From: a bacterium
GTDB lineage: Bacteria > Patescibacteriota > Minisyncoccia > UBA6257 > UBA9933
Assembly: GCA_021796335.1 (NCBI GenBank)
Contig: JAJYHZ010000001.1
Span: 1-55,755 of the forward strand
Direction of reading: 5' to 3'
Length of the DNA: 55,755 nucleotides
Under the pieces are notes generated by a model that saw only the letters and a program-made list of their open reading frames with translations, was not told the DNA's origin and ran no database searches. The translations under genes were made by a program, and so were the position numbers. Positions 48,261 to 55,755 of this stretch are shown here, piece by piece (the stretch's first letter is position 1; each line of letters opens with the position of its first letter).

Positions 48261-48473
48261 ACAAACACCACCATAAAACTAAAGAATAAAACGGACGTGA
48301 TAACAGCCGCTTCATTCTGATAAACTGGCAAATTCCGCAGAACCAAATATTATTGCATTAAAGTTATCCCCATTTTTTTCTTTTATAAATTGTTGATTTT
48401 TATTAAAATTAAATTTAAATAGGAGCTTATATATTCGCCCTGAAAAATTAAATTCATCAATATGCGTAACAGT

Positions 48474-50699
48474 ATGAAAAAATTAAGCAATTTATCCCTA
48501 GTCGTTATTTTAATTATAATTGGAAATTTTTTTATAAGCGCGCAAACAAAGGCGGCCACAATCATTCCGCTTACAAGCTGCGGAATATTAAATCAGACTG
48601 GCGCCACTTATCAGCTTCAAAATAATGTTGATGCGACAGGTACCTGTTTTTCTATACAAGCGGATAATATTACTCTTGATTTAAATAACCATACGGTAAC
48701 TTACGGCGATCAAGCTCCAATAACGATACCGAACGGCAGTTTTGAAAACGGAACCGCGAACTGGGATTTTTCCAAAGCTCCCAACGCTTCCGTTCGGGCG
48801 GGAACTTTCATTCCTCCGACCGTCTGGGATGGAAATTATTCAGCCGCTTTCAAACTTCCGATTACCGCAACAAATACTATTGTCAGTGCTCCTGTTACGC
48901 TTTTGGCTGGAGTAACTTATGTGCCTTCGGCCATGTTTTACAATCAAGCCGATGGGAATTTGTCCCAGACGATTGAAATCGACGATGCTTCCACTGGCCA
49001 AGTCCTTTCGACATTTTCCAAACCGGGATTTATGAGTTGGCGAGGTTTTCAGCTTATGTATCCCAATTCTTATAAACCAACCGTAACCGAGAGCGTTGTT
49101 ATGAAATTGTCAGTAGGAAACGGCAGTCCGACAGCCACGGGTTACGCTTACTGGGATGACGCGAGAATTTTACTCGGTCCCACAAATGGAATCGCCGCGC
49201 GCGCGTGTTTTAATTCAAGTGAAATAACTTGGAGCGGCAGGATTACGTACGATCAGCCTTGCGGCGGGTCGGCAAATAACTTCATTCTTAAAAACGGGAC
49301 AATAACTCAGGGCGCCGGCTATGGCATCGCAAGCCATGCCATCGGAATATACCAGGTCAATTACGCCGACAACTGGCAAGTCTTCAACAACACGCTTACG
49401 GTTTCTGGCCCGAAATCGCAGGACTTCTGGGCTTATGAATCCGATCCGAACCTTATCATTCACGACAATAAACTCATCAGCAACGTTACGACCATTGAGC
49501 GCCGCGACGGTTTTGAAGGCGATCTTATTTATAATGCGGTCTATTCCAATCAACAAGGGGCGACTATTTATAACAATACTTTGATCGGCGGCCCGCAAGG
49601 CGGCATATTTTCCACCGGAAACGGCGGCGATATTTATAATAACGATATAAGTATGAACGGCAAATACACTAATGACTTCGGCATAGCGGTAGGAACCAAT
49701 AACTCCAATGTTTATGGAAATAATATCCATCCTGCGAGTGGAAGAGGAATAGTGGTTTCCGGCGTCAATGATAAAATTTACAACAACACGATTTCCGTCA
49801 AAGAACTTCCCCAAAATCAGGAATATTTCGGTTGCGAAGGATCCGGCGCTTACGGCATCCAGTTGCGTTCCTCGACAAATACGGAAGTTTACGGCAATAC
49901 GGTAACTTCCTATGCCGATCAGTGCGAGGCGCGCGGAATCGGTTTACGCACAGACCCGCCGCTGACTTTAAATAATATTAATGTTCACAATAACACCTTT
50001 ACCGCGATTCGAGTCGGTTCTAGTTCTCAAAAAATTTCTAATATTGATCCGTACACCGCAACCGGGACAAACGTATTATTAAGCAACAACACTTTTACTT
50101 CCGATGAATATAATTATTTGGATTACTGGAACGGATTTTACGGTTTAACGTTGGATTCCAATACTTTTGTAAAAGGGAACAATCCGGACTCAAATTATGC
50201 GACATTCGCTTTTATAACTGGAGGAGCGTCTGATTTGGGAATGCGCAATATCGATGCCGCTTATCAAAACGGCGCTTCCGGTTCCAGTGTTTACGCAAGC
50301 GATAATTTGGCTAATGGCTATCCATATAGCTTTACAAACGAATGGCGTTTGCACCTTGCTGTAAAAGATCCGAACAATAACCCGATTTCCAATGCTAATG
50401 TTGCGGTCAATGATAGCACCGGCGTCACGGTTGTTTCCACGACTACTGCTTCCGACGGCACCGCGGTTTTTCCTCTTATTCAAAATAGATTTTATAATTC
50501 AACCAGCGCGATAATAAATACGGCTGTTTACACTCCGCATACGATTACCGTTTCTTATCCGGGCTATGCCACATACTCCACAACTCTGACCATGGACAGC
50601 CCAAAGACATTATCAGTGACTCTTAGTGCGGGTAGCGGAGGTTCAGGCTCTCTTGACACCACCCCTCCCGCCGCTCCGACGGGATTGAAAGTGATATGA
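48474..50699 (+). CDS. secreted right-handed beta-helix protein with CBM-like insert, Cna-B/carboxypeptidase-regulatory-like domain and C-terminal DTTPPAAPTGLKVI tail
   Basis: Signal peptide (TKA|A); Asn-ladder repeats (IYNNTL, VYGNNI, IYNNTI); NGSFENG..W; VKDPNNNPISNANV; GSGGSGS linker before the tail. Confidence 0.85.
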   Translation: MKKLSNLSLVVILIIIGNFFISAQTKAATIIPLTSCGILNQTGATYQLQNNVDATGTCFSIQADNITLDLNNHTVTYGDQAPITIPNGSFENGTANWDFSKAPNASVRAGTFIPPTVWDGNYSAAFKLPITATNTIVSAPVTLLAGVTYVPSAMFYNQADGNLSQTIEIDDASTGQVLSTFSKPGFMSWRGFQLMYPNSYKPTVTESVVMKLSVGNGSPTATGYAYWDDARILLGPTNGIAARACFNSSEITWSGRITYDQPCGGSANNFILKNGTITQGAGYGIASHAIGIYQVNYADNWQVFNNTLTVSGPKSQDFWAYESDPNLIIHDNKLISNVTTIERRDGFEGDLIYNAVYSNQQGATIYNNTLIGGPQGGIFSTGNGGDIYNNDISMNGKYTNDFGIAVGTNNSNVYGNNIHPASGRGIVVSGVNDKIYNNTISVKELPQNQEYFGCEGSGAYGIQLRSSTNTEVYGNTVTSYADQCEARGIGLRTDPPLTLNNINVHNNTFTAIRVGSSSQKISNIDPYTATGTNVLLSNNTFTSDEYNYLDYWNGFYGLTLDSNTFVKGNNPDSNYATFAFITGGASDLGMRNIDAAYQNGASGSSVYASDNLANGYPYSFTNEWRLHLAVKDPNNNPISNANVAVNDSTGVTVVSTTTASDGTAVFPLIQNRFYNSTSAIINTAVYTPHTITVSYPGYATYSTTLTMDSPKTLSVTLSAGSGGSGSLDTTPPAAPTGLKVI

Positions 50700-50709
50700 T
50701 AAAAAACAA

Positions 50710-51917
50710 ATGATTCAAAAAGCAAAAACAAAAATTATTTTTCTTGTCCTGGCTATTCTAATTTTGGGATTTTTATCTTTTCCATTTTTGGAACCAATCT
50801 CAAAATCGAAAAAGTTGAAGCTTCGGGAGTCACCATCGATTCCGTTTCAGGGAGTATCTCTGACGGCCAAAACATTACCATTAACGGTTCCGGGTTCGGA
50901 GCGAACGGTCCGACCATTGCTCTTTATGACAATTTCGGCGGCGGTACGGCCGGACAAGCGATTAAAACAGGTTCCGGATCAGCTAATATTGGCCAGTGGA
51001 CAAGCGACACTGGCGGCGGTTGCAATGCGCCAATATATGATAGTACCTATTCTATAAATGCAAACGGACTATCTATGAGAGATGATTTTGCCAACCAACA
51101 AAGTTGTGTGGCAAAAGCGACACTTCCGACTTTCACGGATGCTTTTATTTCATATTGGATTTATATGCCTACCACTTCATGCTGGCCTAGCAACATGAAA
51201 ACATCTTGGGTTTTGTGGTATGGTGCCAGTTCTCCCTACGCAGATAACGATGTGATTCCTGGCATACAGCTTGGCGGCACTCCTAATCCTACATACGATC
51301 CGTCTCATAACTGGTCTGATCAATGCGATCATTGCAAAATACATAACCAATATTTTGCCAACCTATATAAACTTAATGCGTACAAAGGACAATGGTACCG
51401 CATTTCAACATATGTTCACGATGACATAAATTTGGATGGAACCGGAAAAGTTAACACCTGGGTTCTTAGTCCTGGCAGTTTGGCTAATACGCAAACGGTT
51501 AATTATACAGGAGCGATTATGGAAGATAATACTTATTTGCCTAACACTTTTCAGCTCGGCTATGGGAATCCCGATAATAATATACCGGGTTGCAGTGAAG
51601 AAGCGCCTCGTTACGATAACGTCTACCTTGCCACCGGTCCCGACGCCCAAGCCCGCGTCGAAATCGGCAACGCTTCCACCTATGCCTCAAGCACCGACCT
51701 TTCTATAGCTACTATCACTTCTTGGAGCGATAATTCCATCACCGCTACTGTCAGACAAGGCTCCTTTTCCAACAACTCCCGGGACTATCTCTATGTCATC
51801 GACGCCAACGGCAATGTCAACGCCAGTGGTTATCCTATTACCGTGGGGTCAACGTATTCCACTATTCAAACTGACACCACCCCTCCCGCCGCTCCGACGG
51901 GATTGAAAGTGACATAA
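50710..51917 (+). pseudogene. secreted IPT/TIG + lectin-like protein with DTTPPAAPTGLKVT tail, split by a 1-nt frameshift near 50770
   Basis: The signal peptide starts in the frame of 50710. The frame of 51075 is open back to 50703 with no start codon. One extra T in the T5 run at 50770-50774 joins them (GFFIFSIFGTNLKIEKVEA|SGVTI...). Confidence 0.8.
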
Positions 51918-51924
51918 TAAAAAA

Positions 51925-52308
51925 ATGACTAAACAAAAAAATAAAATTGCAATAGGAACGATAATAGTTTTGGCATTTATTTTATTTTTTATTTTTCATA
52001 AATCCCAAAATACGCATATTCCCAAAAATGAATTTTCAAATAATAACGGAACAGGAACGGCTTTTTTAGAATGGAATCACAATAAAGAAAACGATCTGGG
52101 CGGTTATAAAATATATTACGGAACCGCTCCGCGAACAAGCAGCTGTCCTCCGGGCGGATATCAAAATAAAATAGACATAGAAAATAAAACGGAATATAAT
52201 TTTAATAATTTAGAAAAAGGGGGAATATACTATTTTTCCGTTTCCGCTTACAATAAAAGCGGAAAAGAAAGTTGTTTTTCACAAGAGGTCGCGAAAAAAA
52301 TTAATTAA
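51925..52308 (+). CDS. membrane-anchored single fibronectin type III-like domain protein
   Basis: N-terminal TM; AFLEW..N.E.DLGGYKIYYG...NL..G.IYYFSVSAY...ES..S.EV. Confidence 0.88.
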   Translation: MTKQKNKIAIGTIIVLAFILFFIFHKSQNTHIPKNEFSNNNGTGTAFLEWNHNKENDLGGYKIYYGTAPRTSSCPPGGYQNKIDIENKTEYNFNNLEKGGIYYFSVSAYNKSGKESCFSQEVAKKIN

Positions 52309-52442
52309 GATTAAATAAAATAATCCCGCACATAACTTTTTAAAAGTTCATTGCGGGAAAACTAAAATTAATTTAATTTCCTGTTTGAATTACATAAAAA
52401 ATAAGTTTTTTATGTAATTATAACAAAGAAATTATGTGCGGG

Positions 52443-54110
52443 ATGAAAAAAACATTAACTGTAATTTTAACTTTTGTCGGTCTGTTTGTGCTATTACCTT
52501 ATGCATTTGCGTCCGGTTCGGCAACTCTTACTTGGAATTCAAACACAGAATCAGATCTTGCGGGTTATAAAATTTATTATGGGACTGCTTCACGCGGCAG
52601 CATAACAAATCCTCCCTCTGGTTATACCAATGTAATCGATCTCCATAATACTTCCACAAGCTATACCATAAATAATCTTGCCGACGGCACATATTATTTT
52701 GCCGTAACCGCCTACGATACTTCAAACAATGAAAGTGCTTACTCTGCCGAAGTTTCTAAAACCATTAATGCAACCGCCCCCCCCATTCTCTCCAATGGCT
52801 CTCCTTCAGGCTCTCTTTCAGCAGGCACGACCAAGGCAATATTATCGGTAACCACAAATGAAAGCGCCACCTGCAAATATTCCACCACTCCCAATACTGA
52901 TTACAATTCCATAACAAATACTTTCTCCACCACCGGAGGAACAACCCATTCTTCGATAATATCCGGACTGGTTAACGGAAGCTCTTATTCCTACTATGTC
53001 CGCTGTCAGGACAATTCCGGCAATGCGGACACTTCTGACTATCAGATAAGCTTCTCAGTTGCTTCAGCCAATAGCATATCGGGAAAAACATTCTACATAT
53101 CCGATTCCGGAAGCGATTCCAATACGGGATATAACATATCTTATCCCTGGCTCACAATAAACAAATTTATTCTTTATCCGGGCGCAATAACTCCTTCTTC
53201 CGGCACCCCCACCTCTACAAACCGGATAACAATCAATAATCAGGTTCAGATAAATCTCCGGAATGGAGCAGTTATAACAATTCCAGCCAATACCGTAATG
53301 ACAGCCGGTTCAACCATAGATTTCAGCCAACTGATGGCGACTTCCACTGTATCCACCTCCGATATTCCTTCAAATTATTCTTCCCTGGGGGCAATATCCT
53401 TCGGCCACCCATCGTATCCTCTTTCTACAGATAATTCCGTTGTTATTCGGATTCCAGTAAACTTCTCCTATAACGATAAAACTCTTTCCGTATTCGCAAA
53501 AGAACCCGGAAATTCATCTTGGGCTGACACTGGAAAAACCTGTATGGTGCTAAACAGTTCCTGCCAATTCTCCGCAACCCAGTTCTCCCAATTTGCGGCC
53601 GTCATCCAGAATTCAAGCTCCAATACCAATACCAATACTAATACTAATACTAACAATTCCATTGGTGCAGGAACTTATGTCCCTTCAAGCACATCAATTG
53701 CCGCTTCAGGCGCATCAACTTCTCAACCAGCCGCATCGTCAACTGCCTCGACCTCCAATTCTTCAACCGCCGCAACTTCTTCTTCCATTTCCTCTTCTGA
53801 TCAAACAAAGCTTCTGATAATAAATCTTATTAATGAACTCAAATCCCTTCTTTCCCAATATCTGTCCATGACAAACACGACTCTGAAGCTCGGTTCCAGA
53901 GGCGCTGACGTGGGAATGCTTCAGAACTACCTTATCCTTGAAAATACGGGATTTTATTCCGGATTGCTTTCCAAATACGGAGTAACCGGATATTTCGGGG
54001 CTGTTACCAGAAACGCCTTATCAGAATTCCAGAAATCGCATCATATTTATCCGTCTTTTGGAGTATTCGGACCTATTACAAAGTCTTATTTGAGGAATAA
54101 TGCGAGATAA
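52443..54110 (+). CDS. secreted multidomain surface protein: N-terminal FN3-like, Ig-like, stalk, Ser/Thr linker, C-terminal peptidoglycan-binding domain
   Basis: Signal peptide AFA|SGSATLTW; DLAGYKIYYG; YYFAVTAYD; (NT)n repeat; LKLGSRGADVGMLQNYL...GYFGAVTRNALSEFQK. Confidence 0.88.
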   Translation: MKKTLTVILTFVGLFVLLPYAFASGSATLTWNSNTESDLAGYKIYYGTASRGSITNPPSGYTNVIDLHNTSTSYTINNLADGTYYFAVTAYDTSNNESAYSAEVSKTINATAPPILSNGSPSGSLSAGTTKAILSVTTNESATCKYSTTPNTDYNSITNTFSTTGGTTHSSIISGLVNGSSYSYYVRCQDNSGNADTSDYQISFSVASANSISGKTFYISDSGSDSNTGYNISYPWLTINKFILYPGAITPSSGTPTSTNRITINNQVQINLRNGAVITIPANTVMTAGSTIDFSQLMATSTVSTSDIPSNYSSLGAISFGHPSYPLSTDNSVVIRIPVNFSYNDKTLSVFAKEPGNSSWADTGKTCMVLNSSCQFSATQFSQFAAVIQNSSSNTNTNTNTNTNNSIGAGTYVPSSTSIAASGASTSQPAASSTASTSNSSTAATSSSISSSDQTKLLIINLINELKSLLSQYLSMTNTTLKLGSRGADVGMLQNYLILENTGFYSGLLSKYGVTGYFGAVTRNALSEFQKSHHIYPSFGVFGPITKSYLRNNAR

Positions 54111-54153
54111 AATCTTTATATTTATGGAGACTTCTCCTATAATATAAAATGAA

Positions 54154-55755
54154 ATGAAAAAACACTTTTTTCTATTAATTTTTTTTGCAGGTATTTTCAT
54201 TTTGATTCCGAGCGCAAAAGCCGCCACCAATGTTTATTACTCCGTAGGCCAGGCCACAACAACTCTTCAAACGGGTTCTCCGACCCTATCGATTTCAAAC
54301 GGAACGGGCACGTTCTCCACGGCCCAAACGGGAAATATAGGCGTGGGAGACGAAGTTACTTATAACACAAATTCCATAGCTTTTATTTCGGGTAAAATTT
54401 CCCAAACTCAATGGACTCTAATTACCGCTGTCGGAGCGACACCAGCCGATATCACAAACGCTTCCGTCAATTCGATCACCAGGGCGTTTACCTCGTTATA
54501 TGCCGCTTTAAGCAATGGCGTGTCCGGCAACGCCACCAGCGCCAATTTTCTTAATACTTCCGATTTGGTTTCCGGGAATTTTGTTTTAAATATCCCTTGC
54601 TATTATGATTCCGGACCGGATGCGTCAGCGCTTGTAAATATTAGTAATTACACAACCGGACCGAATAATTATATTAAAATTTATACGCCAACCAGCACTT
54701 CAACCGAAGCCAACAATAGCCAAAGGCATAATGGCAAGTGGGATCCTGCAAAATATAACATGCAGTATACTTTTGCGAACGCAAGCAGCACGAATTATTT
54801 TATAAATATTAGCGTTCCTTATATTAAAATCGAAGGGCTCCAATTTTATGGTCTGTCGTCGACACAAATCTCAACTCTTCCTTATCAGCCTCATTTTATT
54901 AATATTGGCAGTCCGGTTACCGGAGATCTGTATATATCTTCAAATATTATCAAAGCTTCTTTATCTAACGGCGCTACGGCTATCGCCATAATGAACGCTC
55001 CTATCACTAATTTAAACGAATACATTTATAATAATATCATTTATAATTTTATTGACAGTACTATGGGCACAGGAATTACAGCAAAGACCGCTGCTTCCTC
55101 CACGATTTACATATATAATAATACTATTTTTAACAATTATATCGGTATAACAGCCAATTCCAATGGAAATATTTTAATAAAAAATAACATCGCCAATGGA
55201 AATACCACAGACTACAGTAACATCCCTTATTTTAGTAGTTCTTCTGTTAACAATATTTCTCAAGACGGCACTTCCCCCAACACATCTTTTCAATATAAAA
55301 CTGTTTCTTTCGTTTCTACTTCCACGGAAGATTTTCATCTTTCTTCTTCAGACACGGCCGCGATAGACCAAGGGGTGGATTTATCCGCCGATCCTTATCT
55401 GCCCTTTAATACTGATATAGATGGAGATACCCGTCCTCAAGGTTCCGCCTGGGATATTGGCGCGGATGAATATGTAACGCTTCCCGATACCACGCCTCCT
55501 GCCATCGCTTCTTTTTCCATGCCCGCAACAGCGGCTTCCACCACTGTCAGCGTTTCTTCCTTTACCGCCACTGACAATGTTGGCGTCACCGGCTATCTCA
55601 TCAACGAATCTTCTTCCACGCCTTCATTATCAGATCCCAACTGGTCAGGATCTGCTCCCGCTACCTATACTTTTTCCGGAAGCGGAAGCAGAACCGCCTA
55701 TGCCTGGGCCAAGGACGGAGCGGGGAATATTTCAAGTAGCGCCAGCGCAACTGTG
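54154..55755 (+). CDS. 3'-partial large secreted beta-helix/adhesin-like protein (not in ORF track, runs off the window)
   Basis: MKKHFFLLIFFAGIFILIPSAKA|ATNVYYSVGQ; open to the window end at every stretch I translated; SQRHNGKW, IYNNTIF, DIDGDTRPQGSAWDIGADEY, DTTPPAIASF. Confidence 0.88.
   Translation, partial: MKKHFFLLIFFAGIFILIPSAKAATNVYYSVGQATTTLQTGSPTLSISNGTGTFSTAQTGNIGVGDEVTYNTNSIAFISGKISQTQWTLITAVGATPADITNASVNSITRAFTSLYAALSNGVSGNATSANFLNTSDLVSGNFVLNIPCYYDSGPDASALVNISNYTTGPNNYIKIYTPTSTSTEANNSQRHNGKWDPAKYNMQYTFANASSTNYFINISVPYIKIEGLQFYGLSSTQISTLPYQPHFINIGSPVTGDLYISSNIIKASLSNGATAIAIMNAPITNLNEYIYNNIIYNFIDSTMGTGITAKTAASSTIYIYNNTIFNNYIGITANSNGNILIKNNIANGNTTDYSNIPYFSSSSVNNISQDGTSPNTSFQYKTVSFVSTSTEDFHLSSSDTAAIDQGVDLSADPYLPFNTDIDGDTRPQGSAWDIGADEYVTLPDTTPPAIASFSMPATAASTTVSVSSFTATDNVGVTGYLINESSSTPSLSDPNWSGSAPATYTFSGSGSRTAYAWAKDGAGNISSSASATV

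Follow-up and report, generated by a model that had tools for sequence, protein, structure and literature searches.

How might two secreted proteins of otherwise unrelated sequence, encoded side by side and ending in the same short peptide, be held at the cell surface? The question arises in a 55,755-nt stretch of DNA (the window) from the CPR genome of an uncultured mine-drainage bacterium, in which protein searches cover the six proteins of 48462-55755 (Table 1). Our reading of the sequence points to a split pairing that recurs in several phyla, with a 14-residue tail on secreted passengers (genes A and B) as one half and an anchored fibronectin-III (FN3) domain made without strand A (genes C and D) as the putative other half. 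Such tail/FN3 pairing probably serves to tether enzymes at the cell surface; we found no description of this docking mode in the literature, and a split-FN3 tag/catcher is not a published family.

Table 1. Features of the passenger and candidate catcher genes, in window coordinates
Feature	Position	Strand	Basis
Gene A, secreted passenger 1, 745 aa	48462..50699	+	ORF; Pfam
41-nt repeat, copy 1, tail-encoding	50654..50694	+	Identical DNA
Gene A tail DTTPPAAPTGLKVI, then TGA TAA	50655..50702	+	ORF, sequence
Gene B, secreted passenger 2, frameshifted	50710..51917	+	ORFs, three-frame translation
A5 run in GAAAAAG, likeliest site of the 1-nt frameshift of gene B	50809..50813	+	Three-frame translation, sequence; exact site inferred
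41-nt repeat, copy 2, tail-encoding	51872..51912	+	Identical DNA
Gene B tail DTTPPAAPTGLKVT, then TAA TAA; its end lies 7 nt upstream of the start codon of gene C	51873..51920	+	ORF, sequence
Gene C, small catcher candidate, 127 aa	51925..52308	+	Pfam fn3; family alignment
Stable branched RNA/DNA structure between genes C and D	52323..52444	+	Inverted repeats I2, I4
Gene D, large catcher candidate, 558 aa	52434..54110	+	Pfam fn3, PG_binding_1
Gene D signal peptide, cleavage between AFA and SGS	52434-52511	+	
Gene D A-less FN3	52512-52769	+	
Gene D Ig-like 'CKYS' domain	52770-53069	+	
Gene D PG_binding_1	53898-54080	+	Pfam
Next secreted surface protein of the cluster, open at its 3' end	54154..55755	+	ORF; NCBIfam NF041518

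Gene A encodes a signal peptide, a right-handed beta-helix, CarboxypepD_reg/PEGA Ig-like domains (Pfam: Beta_helix, NosD, CarboxypepD_reg, and PEGA), a G/S linker, and the tail. The body of gene B is ordered IPT, alginate-lyase-like jelly-roll, IPT, linker, and tail; it has 388 homologues (length about 380 aa), and its AF2 model (pLDDT 88) matches PL36/PL14 alginate lyases, an ulvan lyase, and legume lectins in Foldseek. The preliminary description took gene B for one intact ORF, a claim that has to be abandoned: the signal peptide starts at ATG 50710 and the body lies in a different frame, open from 50703 to 51917, with the change of frame located around 50790-50830 by three-frame translation. 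The simplest cause, and from the sequence the most likely one, is a single A missing from the A5 run; four metagenome runs all have the same state, with no indel variant. Because gene B is frameshifted in this genome, only the gene A product may currently be displayed. The protein encoded beyond gene D, which may belong to the same system, has a choice-of-anchor Q motif followed by DTTPP and an Ig-like domain, and carries no tail within the window.

Both passengers do terminate in a common tail, as had been proposed, each ending in DTTPPAAPTGLKV(I/T) followed by two stops. The two copies of the underlying 41-nt repeat are 100% identical in DNA, where chance would yield none, and read depth in the four metagenome runs is 446 over the repeat against 240 in the flanks, or about twofold, and therefore indicates two copies. 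Because they are identical at the DNA level, the two window tails count as one recent event and not as two independent ones; independent support for the tail comes from other genomes. The 14-residue consensus is D-T-T-P-P-x-x-P-x-G-L-x-V-x-COOH, and the sequences of the A and B ends contain no transmembrane (TM) segment, no LPXTG-like motif, and no folded CTD. AF2, with an alignment of 91 sequences, leaves the tail of gene B as coil that is not built into the protein's own fold; its middling confidence (pLDDT 70-79) means that it may lie on its own protein.

Elsewhere the tail behaves as an exchangeable part. A strict C-terminal P..P..[LIVF].[LIVAMF] ends 49 of 119 gene B homologues, and a looser form ends 56; at the same position other homologues have a T9SS type A domain (L106, L113, and L122) or CFI-box-CTERM (P0030 and P0118). 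Proteins of unrelated folds bear the tail in L004, L007, L010, L088/L134, L099, and L135, with at least 17 tail genes in succession in L088/L134, and the L088 tails differ at 242 synonymous versus 190 non-synonymous codons. Sequence comparison supports a conserved, modular C-terminal element on unrelated secreted proteins, which very probably acts as a tag for sorting or anchoring, whatever its kind.

The candidate catchers are short of one strand. Gene C has an N-terminal TM helix (~51946-51999), a spacer of 20 residues (HKSQNTHIPKNEFSNNNGTGT) that is unconserved in the family alignment, and an FN3 domain that runs from strand B (~52048-52305) and includes a CPPGGY...ESCFS cysteine pair. Gene D continues behind its A-less FN3 and 'CKYS' domain with one further domain without assignment and an S/T-rich stretch, before the C-terminal PG_binding_1 domain detected by Pfam, in keeping with the peptidoglycan anchor previously suggested for it. 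The FN3 domains of genes C and D are 56% identical and share, as described earlier, the motifs W..N.E.DL.GYKIYYG and YYF.V.AY..ES..S.EV.K.IN. That both start at strand B is borne out by Pfam: the fn3 match begins at profile position 7 in gene C (32.5 bits) and 13 in gene D (25.7 bits), so that both pass the PF00041 cut-off of 25, yet each has only strands B-G of the seven-strand A-G sandwich. The segment THIPKNEF, which might have served gene C as a strand A of its own and so spoken against a split domain, can largely be discounted. It is unconserved in the gene C family, whose alignment contains no conserved strand A, and the AF2 model of the L007 member (49% identical to gene C) has six strands B-G at pLDDT >90 and nothing before B, while matching FN3 structures with probability 1.0 in Foldseek.

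Can the tail be the absent strand? Within this FN3 subfamily, the strand-A motif lies in cis upstream of 463 of 556 internal domains (83%) and of 13 of 70 N-terminal domains (19%), and the A-less N-terminal copies are anchored by a TM helix, a lipobox, a PG-binding domain, or dockerin. Sequence comparison supports a match between the tail and the cis strand A of this same subfamily (W..N.E.DLAGYKIYYG). Joined in silico to gene C or D, the tail moved the start of the Pfam fn3 match from 15-16 to 2 and added 2.9-5.3 bits, and reversed or shuffled tails used as controls added 0-1 bit. In an AF2 single-chain read-through of L007 (tail, 13 residues, TM helix, and FN3), the tail had pLDDT <50, formed no strand, and stayed undocked. 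The result counts only as a weak negative, given that the tail lacked alignment depth and the chain included the TM helix. In this subfamily, N-terminal FN3 domains without strand A are far commoner than tails and also head giant multi-FN3 proteins whose C-termini look like T9SS sorting domains, and starting at strand B may perhaps simply be this domain's way of beginning a protein.

Gene neighborhoods link the two halves. Tail genes have A-less FN3 genes with a membrane or lipid anchor as neighbors, both in CPR and in proteobacteria-like loci, and L004 and L007 share one arrangement, in which tail genes are followed by a small TM-FN3 and then by a signal-peptide-FN3-anchor gene. Immediately upstream of a tailed B gene, L005, L137, and L138 carry a lipoprotein-FN3 gene and L002 a TM-anchored FN3 gene; in L089 a lipoprotein-FN3 gene likewise immediately precedes a B gene, whose tail is degenerate. 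In loci retrieved by their catcher only, the tail terminates 13 of 288 ORFs (0.45 expected); of the loci with tailed B genes, 6 of 17 have a catcher no more than 5 kb away, versus 2 of 33 with untailed ones (p = 0.013). The large tail arrays (L088/L134, L099, and L135) have no catcher within 8-10 kb. Dockerin-like repeats, recognized by eye, end the A-less FN3 proteins of L004, L006, L009, and L013, and proteins with cohesin-like N-termini, also recognized by eye, are found beside A-less FN3 proteins in L004, L006, and L009.

A sister MAG (GCA_021788015.1) provides a fused counterpart. Its gene A orthologue P0001 (83% identical) is without the tail and runs in cis into an Ig-like 'SNGSPS...CKYS' module, to which L105, a protein with a B-like domain, is also fused in cis. 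The same module sits just behind the A-less FN3 in gene D, whose residues 109-212 share 71% identity with the segment that follows the passenger in P0001. No FN3 is present at the junction in the fused proteins; the fusions tie passenger to anchor module, not tail to FN3 specifically.

The split-FN3 interpretation put forward in the preliminary description is therefore upheld in part. The C-terminal strand-A peptide, conserved and modular and resembling strand A in cis, the anchored A-less FN3, the genetic linkage, and the sister fusion all speak for it, and physical complementation was negative in the AF2 cis construct, where the tail did not dock. The best reading, to which we give an even chance, is a modular non-covalent split-FN3 docking tag. 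The portable tag would correspond to strand A of a single bacterial FN3 subfamily, split off together with the Pro-rich stretch that usually leads into it. The beta-helix passenger A and the polysaccharide-lyase- or lectin-like passenger B, each tagged via a flexible linker, would be exported by Sec; outside the membrane, the tag would insert beside strand B of an FN3 made without strand A, this acceptor being held to the cell by the N-terminal TM helix of gene C or the peptidoglycan-binding domain of gene D. We infer that the tag binds FN3, and that it does so in the strand-A position. The outcome would be a non-covalent, interchangeable surface display achieved by fold complementation.

A genuine C-terminal sorting or anchoring signal could instead address a receptor other than the A-less FN3 (for example a processing enzyme, the S-layer, or a cell-wall component), the FN3 neighbors being merely co-functional proteins of surface or EPS loci. 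The tail does hold the position of T9SS and CFI-box signals in homologues, arrays of it exist with no nearby catcher, it was undocked on FN3 in AF2, and L135 has a sortase gene close to its tail genes. We nevertheless consider this reading rather unlikely, since no conserved receptor candidate besides FN3 recurs beside tail genes, a TM segment and an LPXTG-like motif are missing from the tail, and its match to the very strand that the adjoining domain lacks would be a coincidence. Improbable, too, is a functionless tail, consisting of the linker and first-strand stub of FN3 C-terminal modules that were swapped or lost at DxxPP linkers, with N-terminal FN3 domains of the subfamily just beginning at strand B. 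A stub is unlikely to be conserved in about half of a family only 30-45% identical, with the same end residue after L.V, through many synonymous changes, and the unsplit form (a B domain followed by this FN3 in cis) occurs in 0 of 119 B homologues. What such a stub would explain is the shuffling visible at precisely this linker between window and sister genome, the wide occurrence of A-less N-terminal FN3, also on proteins for which we see no tailed partner, and the origin of the two window tails in one recent DNA event.

The shared 3' end might also be mainly a DNA-level recombination box, at which passenger cassettes lying ahead of a constant anchor operon undergo exchange or conversion, with protein docking secondary or absent. 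The assembly graph branches at the 41 nt, which are fully identical in otherwise unrelated genes, and contigs of the sister MAG end within or just past the shared C-terminal module; however, tails of other genomes are conserved as amino acids with differing codons, and the box leaves unexplained why the peptide is the strand A missing from its neighbor. As the main account it is quite improbable, and a recombination box and protein docking can hold together. Highly improbable is fibre building, a pilus-like head-to-tail polymerization by donor-strand exchange in place of single-enzyme display: no window protein has both ends (A and B bear the tail only, C and D the acceptor only) and the locus shows no chaperone-like gene, although some proteins elsewhere do combine an A-less FN3 at the N-terminus with the tail at the C-terminus (L026:848-2152, L075:7547-8800, and the 120-aa L025:10004-10363) and donor-strand exchange pili are known in CPR (PMC13278184) and Bacillota (10.64898/2026.10.17.759780). 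The covalent link entertained earlier, a spontaneous isopeptide bond between tail and catcher in the SpyTag/SpyCatcher manner, fared worst and is extremely unlikely. Only the D and K in the window tail, with conserved E and D in the catcher, point to it, but S, T, N, G, or R takes the place of the tail Lys in most tails, CPxCPxxP-type tails are without the Asp of DTTPP, the Lys of the catcher GYK alternates with Arg, and the FN3 fold is not CnaB.

Several known systems resemble the proposed docking in part. SpyTag/SpyCatcher was engineered from CnaB2 and forms a covalent Lys-Asp isopeptide bond with a catalytic Glu; the likeness is that a short, portable peptide from one beta-sandwich strand rebuilds a domain in trans, whereas here the pair is natural, the isopeptide residues are unconserved, and the link would be non-covalent. 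Identity with a CnaB-type isopeptide tag/catcher was rejected, with tail Lys and catcher Lys both variable across homologues. Substrates of sortase carry an LPXTG-like motif, then a hydrophobic segment and a basic tail; genes A and B end ...GLKV(I/T)-stop with neither such motif nor segment, and were rejected as sortase substrates. The tail is like the T9SS type A CTD (TIGR04183) and CFI-box-CTERM (NF041770) in that members of the B family bear these at its position; none of the NCBIfam models for T9SS, CFI-box-CTERM, PEP-CTERM, or LPXTG sorting signals matches A or B.

Dockerin is a calcium-binding module of about 70 residues whose partner, cohesin, sits on a scaffold. As in that system, many secreted glycan-active enzymes would share one small C-terminal docking module and an anchored receptor; the tag here, in contrast, has 14 residues, and binding would be fold completion, not contact of two folded domains. 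Gene D uses PG_binding_1 instead of a dockerin, and Pfam finds no dockerin or cohesin in the window's six proteins, which excludes identity with that system. Chaperone-usher pili (Pap/Fim) comprise a PapD-like periplasmic chaperone, an outer-membrane usher, and pilins that are without strand G and have an N-terminal extension. Identity with these was likewise rejected: no chaperone or usher matches the six proteins of 48462-55755 in Pfam or NCBIfam, and it is strand A that is absent, with the donor at the C-terminus. What the pairing would have in common with donor-strand pili (Pap/Fim, Pam, and Elr) is an Ig-like beta-sandwich minus one edge strand, completed by another polypeptide; it differs in that the fold is FN3, the absent strand is the N-terminal A and not the C-terminal G, the donor is a 14-residue C-terminal enzyme tag and not a pilin extension or linker, and what should form is a 1:1 display complex and not a fibre. 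The Pam pili of CPR have two-domain pilins (PamA/B) with a donated linker strand, a nine-strand N-terminal domain, and a truncated Ig C-terminal domain, together with TM-anchored PamC/D chaperones (PMC13278184), published architectures that differ from those of the proteins here. In the Enterococcus Elr WxL pilus, an invariant attachment module bears variable payloads (10.64898/2026.10.17.759780), and acceptors anchored in the membrane function without an outer membrane in both CPR (PMC13278184) and Bacillota (10.64898/2026.10.17.759780).

It is conceivable, though we lean somewhat against it, that a natural split-FN3 tag/catcher serves as a general means of surface display without sortase or a dedicated secretion system, CPR relying on TM-, peptidoglycan-, or dockerin-linked acceptors and diderms on lipoprotein acceptors in EPS loci. 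Any Sec-exported enzyme would then be pluggable into an anchored six-strand FN3, and the L025, L026, and L075 proteins would polymerize head to tail into FN3 fibres. If true, this would supply a ready-made non-covalent tag for protein engineering, attractive for its small size and for the robustness of the fold.

Two further observations concern the surroundings of gene D. The second domain of the protein encoded downstream resembles a domain in a cohesin-bearing protein of the syntenic locus L004. The branched structure between genes C and D, which matches no Rfam family, folds at -40.9 kcal/mol (z = -7.0), and its outer stem spans the gene D start codon.

Four closely spaced, co-oriented genes encode two secreted passengers (genes A and B) and two proteins with a fibronectin type III (FN3) domain (genes C and D), the candidate acceptors, or catchers. 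Both passengers terminate in the same 14 residues, SLDTTPPAAPTGLKVI (the tail): gene A ends in DTTPPAAPTGLKVI followed by TGA TAA, and gene B in DTTPPAAPTGLKVT followed by TAA TAA. The two stops after each tail, together with a downstream gene that opens in another frame with its own signal or transmembrane (TM) segment, rule out a truncation artefact or an alternative genetic code. The catcher domains (56% identical) had been described as beginning at strand B, and this holds: the Pfam fn3 match starts only at profile position 7 in C and 13 in D, and in D the domain begins three residues downstream of signal peptide cleavage between AFA and SGS. We propose that the tail is a detached FN3 strand A; it would act as a non-covalent docking tag that fixes interchangeable secreted enzymes onto anchored six-strand FN3 acceptors.

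Coordinates of genes A to D and associated features
Feature	Position	Description
Gene A	48462-50699	745 aa: signal peptide, right-handed beta-helix, CarboxypepD_reg/PEGA-type Ig-like domains (Pfam), Gly/Ser linker, tail
41-nt repeat, first copy	50654-50694	beneath tail of gene A
Gene B	ATG at 50710, 10 nt past gene A	signal or TM segment; body in a different frame, open 50703-51917
Gene B frameshift site	50790-50830	between signal peptide and first IPT domain
A5 run	50809-50813	candidate site of the frameshift
41-nt repeat, second copy	51872-51912	beneath tail of gene B
Gene C	start 7 nt past gene B	127 aa: TM helix, 20-residue spacer, FN3
C-D spacer fold	52323-52444	branched, -40.9 kcal/mol, z = -7.0
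Gene D	52434-54110, behind a 125-nt spacer	558 aa: signal peptide, FN3, Ig-like domain, unknown domain, S/T-rich stretch, PG_binding_1
(Asn-Thr)n tract of gene D	about 53600-53640	dipeptide repeat from a short tandem DNA repeat

The DNA beneath both tails is an identical 41-nt repeat, a match not expected by chance. The locus is present in four mine-drainage metagenome runs, whose de Bruijn contigs break at the repeat (depth 446 versus 240 in the flanks), indicating two copies in this genome. The two tails of the window are the result of a single recent duplication or conversion event, so functional evidence must come from other genomes. All four runs carry the same frameshifted gene B, with no indel variant (contigs can hide rare variants), and the frameshift is thus not a one-off assembly error. 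It would be most simply explained by the loss of one A from the A5 run; gene B may be a pseudogene, may be phase-variable or may be read by a -1 frameshift. The sequence TCG AAA AAG in this stretch looks like a shifty Lys-Lys site. In an AF2 model of gene B (pLDDT 88, pTM 0.88, from an alignment of 91 sequences) the last 18 residues are coil (pLDDT 70-79) and contribute no strand to the fold of the protein itself. For the central jelly-roll, the structural matches are PL36 and PL14 alginate lyases, an ulvan lyase and legume lectins, a likeness that makes gene B a predicted secreted protein that binds or cleaves glycans.

Gene C was searched against 1.84 billion representative proteins and gave 8,614 matches (E-value up to 0.001). 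Among the top 150 of these, 463 of 556 internal FN3 domains (83%) have a strand-A motif (P..P..L) no more than 24 residues upstream, compared with 13 of 70 N-terminal ones (19%); the N-terminal copies usually sit directly behind a signal peptide (...AFA, then G(S/T)A.L.W). Where this subfamily has strand A in the same polypeptide, the strand reads DTTPPxxPxLxx, the same as the tail, which supports at the sequence level the earlier identification of the tail as the missing strand. When the tail is joined in silico to C or D, the Pfam fn3 match begins at profile position 2 instead of 15-16 and gains 2.9 and 5.3 bits, compared with 0-1 bit for a reversed or shuffled tail.

The small gene C family is anchored by an N-terminal TM helix, and the stretch from anchor to strand B, 0 to about 50 residues, is unconserved, so the family has no conserved strand A of its own. 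A relative at 49% identity was modelled by AF2 with six strands, B-G (pLDDT above 90), and the model matches FN3 structures; a search for solved structures of this subfamily gave only distant eukaryotic FN3 domains. THIPKNEF in gene C was considered as an intrinsic strand A. Its spacing to the Trp is right, yet it is unconserved in the family, raises the fn3 score by no more than about 2 bits (5.3 for the tail), and corresponds to no strand before B in the model of the relative at 49% identity. In diderm-type loci (L005, L089, L137, L138 and the homologous protein P0196) a lipobox with a Gly/Ser linker behind it takes the place of the TM helix in this family. Of the larger acceptors, gene D has the PG_binding_1 domain, and others, as judged by eye only, have at their end dockerin-like repeats, a coiled coil or a helical '...AYSGAKR' domain.

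The 388 homologues of gene B are typically about 380 aa long and come from CPR, Nitrospirota, Desulfobacterota-like bacteria, Myxococcota, Elusimicrobia, Omnitrophota, Bacteroidota and others. Among the best 119, the strict motif P..P..[LIVF].[LIVAMF], no more than four residues from the C-terminus, occurs in 49 and a looser motif in 56 (52 of the 96 that are no longer than 430 aa); examples are DTTPPSAPTGLVVM, APAAPTNLTVQ and CPDCPGNPTGLTVQ. A scan of genome contigs for the exact peptide TPPAAPTGLKV gave no match. At the same C-terminal position, homologues from contigs L106, L113 and L122 have a T9SS type A sorting domain, and P0030 and P0118 a CFI-box-CTERM domain. By this 'choice-of-anchor' argument the tail belongs among sorting or anchoring signals, and it is probably a functional tag of some such kind. 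A recent remnant of a lost FN3 was rejected for the B family, as the B domain and this FN3 occur in cis in 0 of 119 homologues; it is also contradicted by conservation of the tail among homologues of 30-45% identity.

The preliminary description placed the tail on unrelated secreted folds, which is also the case elsewhere: in L004 (one beta-helix protein and three B-like proteins), L007 and L010 (two tailed genes each, at least one beta-helix-like as judged by eye only), L099 (five tailed genes), L135 (three) and a Moraniibacteriota MAG (GCA_013336225.1). This MAG has at least 17 consecutive genes for secreted proteins with a tail (L088:4057-20818 and L134:12512-20658) of the form D-x-x-[AP]-P-x-A-P-x-G-L-x-V-L-stop. 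Among their products are Pel9A-like beta-helices, members of the B family and a polysaccharide lyase, and between the genes lie a Fic/RhuM gene and a MazE gene. Pairwise codon differences among the L088 tails are 242 synonymous versus 190 non-synonymous, and conserved tail residues use different codons in other genomes, which argues for selection on the peptide.

Tails and FN3 genes lacking strand A (A-less) are neighbours in several lineages, as had been anticipated: a catcher lies within 5 kb in 6 of 17 tailed compared with 2 of 33 untailed B loci (Fisher p = 0.013; 0.002 counting the degenerate tail of L089), and next door in 5 of 7 tailed homologues chosen on contig size with neighbours unseen. 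In 80 loci fetched by the catcher profile alone, the tail ends 13 of 288 complete ORFs of at least 150 aa, against 0.45 expected if the motif were as frequent at ORF ends as it is internally (Poisson p about 3e-15); near-versus-far enrichment within these loci was not significant (9/147 vs 4/141). The CPR-like contig L004 mirrors the window order, with a tailed beta-helix gene, three tailed B-like genes and a 129-aa TM-FN3, and continues with a 177-aa signal-peptide-FN3-dockerin and then a cohesin-like protein. In L007, two tailed genes are accompanied by a 134-aa TM-FN3 and a large signal-peptide-FN3 protein, and tailed genes are also paired with an A-less FN3 gene in L010, L012, L017, L032, L076 and L078. 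A lipoprotein-FN3 gene lies 17-110 nt upstream of the B gene in L005, L137, L138 and L089; the B protein of this two-gene module ends in CPxCPxxPxxLxVx in L005 and L137, in a weaker variant in L138 and in a degenerate one in L089. The L005, L137 and L138 modules lie in EPS-biosynthesis loci among glycosyltransferase and flippase genes, with a Wzy polymerase gene also near those of L137 and L138; L002 has a TM-anchored FN3 gene upstream of the B gene and no EPS locus.

Beside the small TM-FN3 in L004:11865-13820, L006:1347-4373 and L009:11197-15392 are dockerin-like ends on signal-peptide-FN3 proteins and cohesin-like N-termini, and a second, cohesin-dockerin layer of surface assembly is suggested for CPR loci. 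In L006, L009 and L010 the small FN3 gene is followed by a gene for a conserved TM protein, about 215 aa long, with the C-terminus ...GAKIFID.

A fused equivalent is found in the sister MAG GCA_021788015.1. Its gene A orthologue (P0001; 83% identity over 737 residues) has no tail and, past '...SSDVNPP', runs into 'TLSGGSPSG...DENAICKYS...', which is 71% identical to gene D residues 109-212, the Ig-like domain directly behind the FN3 of D (the CKYS module). A second protein, whose last IPT domain is 76% identical to that of gene B, continues past '...GYPVTFGSTYTPP' into the same module, where the contig stops. The two contigs (L001 and L105) end inside or right after this C-terminal module common to two passenger genes, so in the sister genome, too, a single 3' module serves several genes, a 390-aa covalent module in place of the 14-aa tail of the window. 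Passengers joined to the module there are separate genes in the window, with the tail on one side and the A-less FN3 on the other, and the gene-fusion ('Rosetta stone') argument points to joint action of A and B with D. At the junction the fused proteins lack an FN3, so the fusion does not prove the contact site.

Non-covalent docking of a strand-A tag to an anchored six-strand FN3 is the best-supported reading of the tail, with about an even chance of being correct. Against it, tails are far rarer than A-less N-terminal FN3 domains, which are also found at the start of giant multi-FN3 proteins with C-terminal ends that, by appearance, resemble T9SS sorting domains. No catcher is within reach of three tail arrays; none lies beside the Moraniibacteriota array even after the locus was extended, or within 8 kb of the three tailed genes of L135, a CPR-like contig. 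(A sortase gene, L135:12094-12690, is 3 kb from these genes.) AF2 also left the tail undocked, below pLDDT 50, in a natural read-through chain from L007 (tail, 13 residues, TM helix, FN3), in which tail gene and catcher share a frame and stops were read as Gly; this is a weak test because the TM helix was included and the tail had no alignment depth, the added tail fragments having been misplaced by MAFFT. The covalent isopeptide link raised earlier is unlikely, since the required residues are unconserved.

Docking would follow the same principle as donor-strand complementation in chaperone-usher pili, the CPR Pam pili (PMC13278184) and the Enterococcus Elr WxL pilus (10.64898/2026.10.17.759780), but the proposed system differs in its FN3 fold with strand A missing, in a donor that is a 14-residue C-terminal tag on enzymes, and in the apparent lack of a chaperone. 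Cohesin-dockerin display has a like logic, with one small module common to many enzymes. A full-text literature search found no paper describing a split-FN3 tag or a CPR sorting signal of this kind. If docking is correct, the rule P..P..L.V.-COOH behind a linker would flag cargo displayed on the surface among thousands of unannotated proteins, such as the arrays of 17 or more polysaccharide-degrading enzymes, and would name the receptors of tagged cargo; fold complementation would extend from pilus building to modular enzyme display, and the abundance of bacterial proteins opening with an FN3 that lacks its first strand would be explained. To our knowledge, the surface proteins of CPR/Patescibacteria and of many other uncultured bacteria mostly have no recognised anchors, and little is understood of how these organisms retain enzymes and adhesins on the cell.

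An A-less FN3 at the N-terminus and a strand-A-like tail at the C-terminus occur in one protein in L026:848-2152, L075:7547-8800 and L025:10004-10363, the last and smallest being a single domain of 120 aa; these are candidates for head-to-tail FN3 fibres. The C-D spacer has a highly stable branched fold, with the start-codon region of gene D paired in its outer stem; it matched no Rfam family, and may regulate gene D or be a small mobile element with inverted repeats. The (Asn-Thr)n tract of gene D lies within a long S/T-rich linker and could be a site of length variation.
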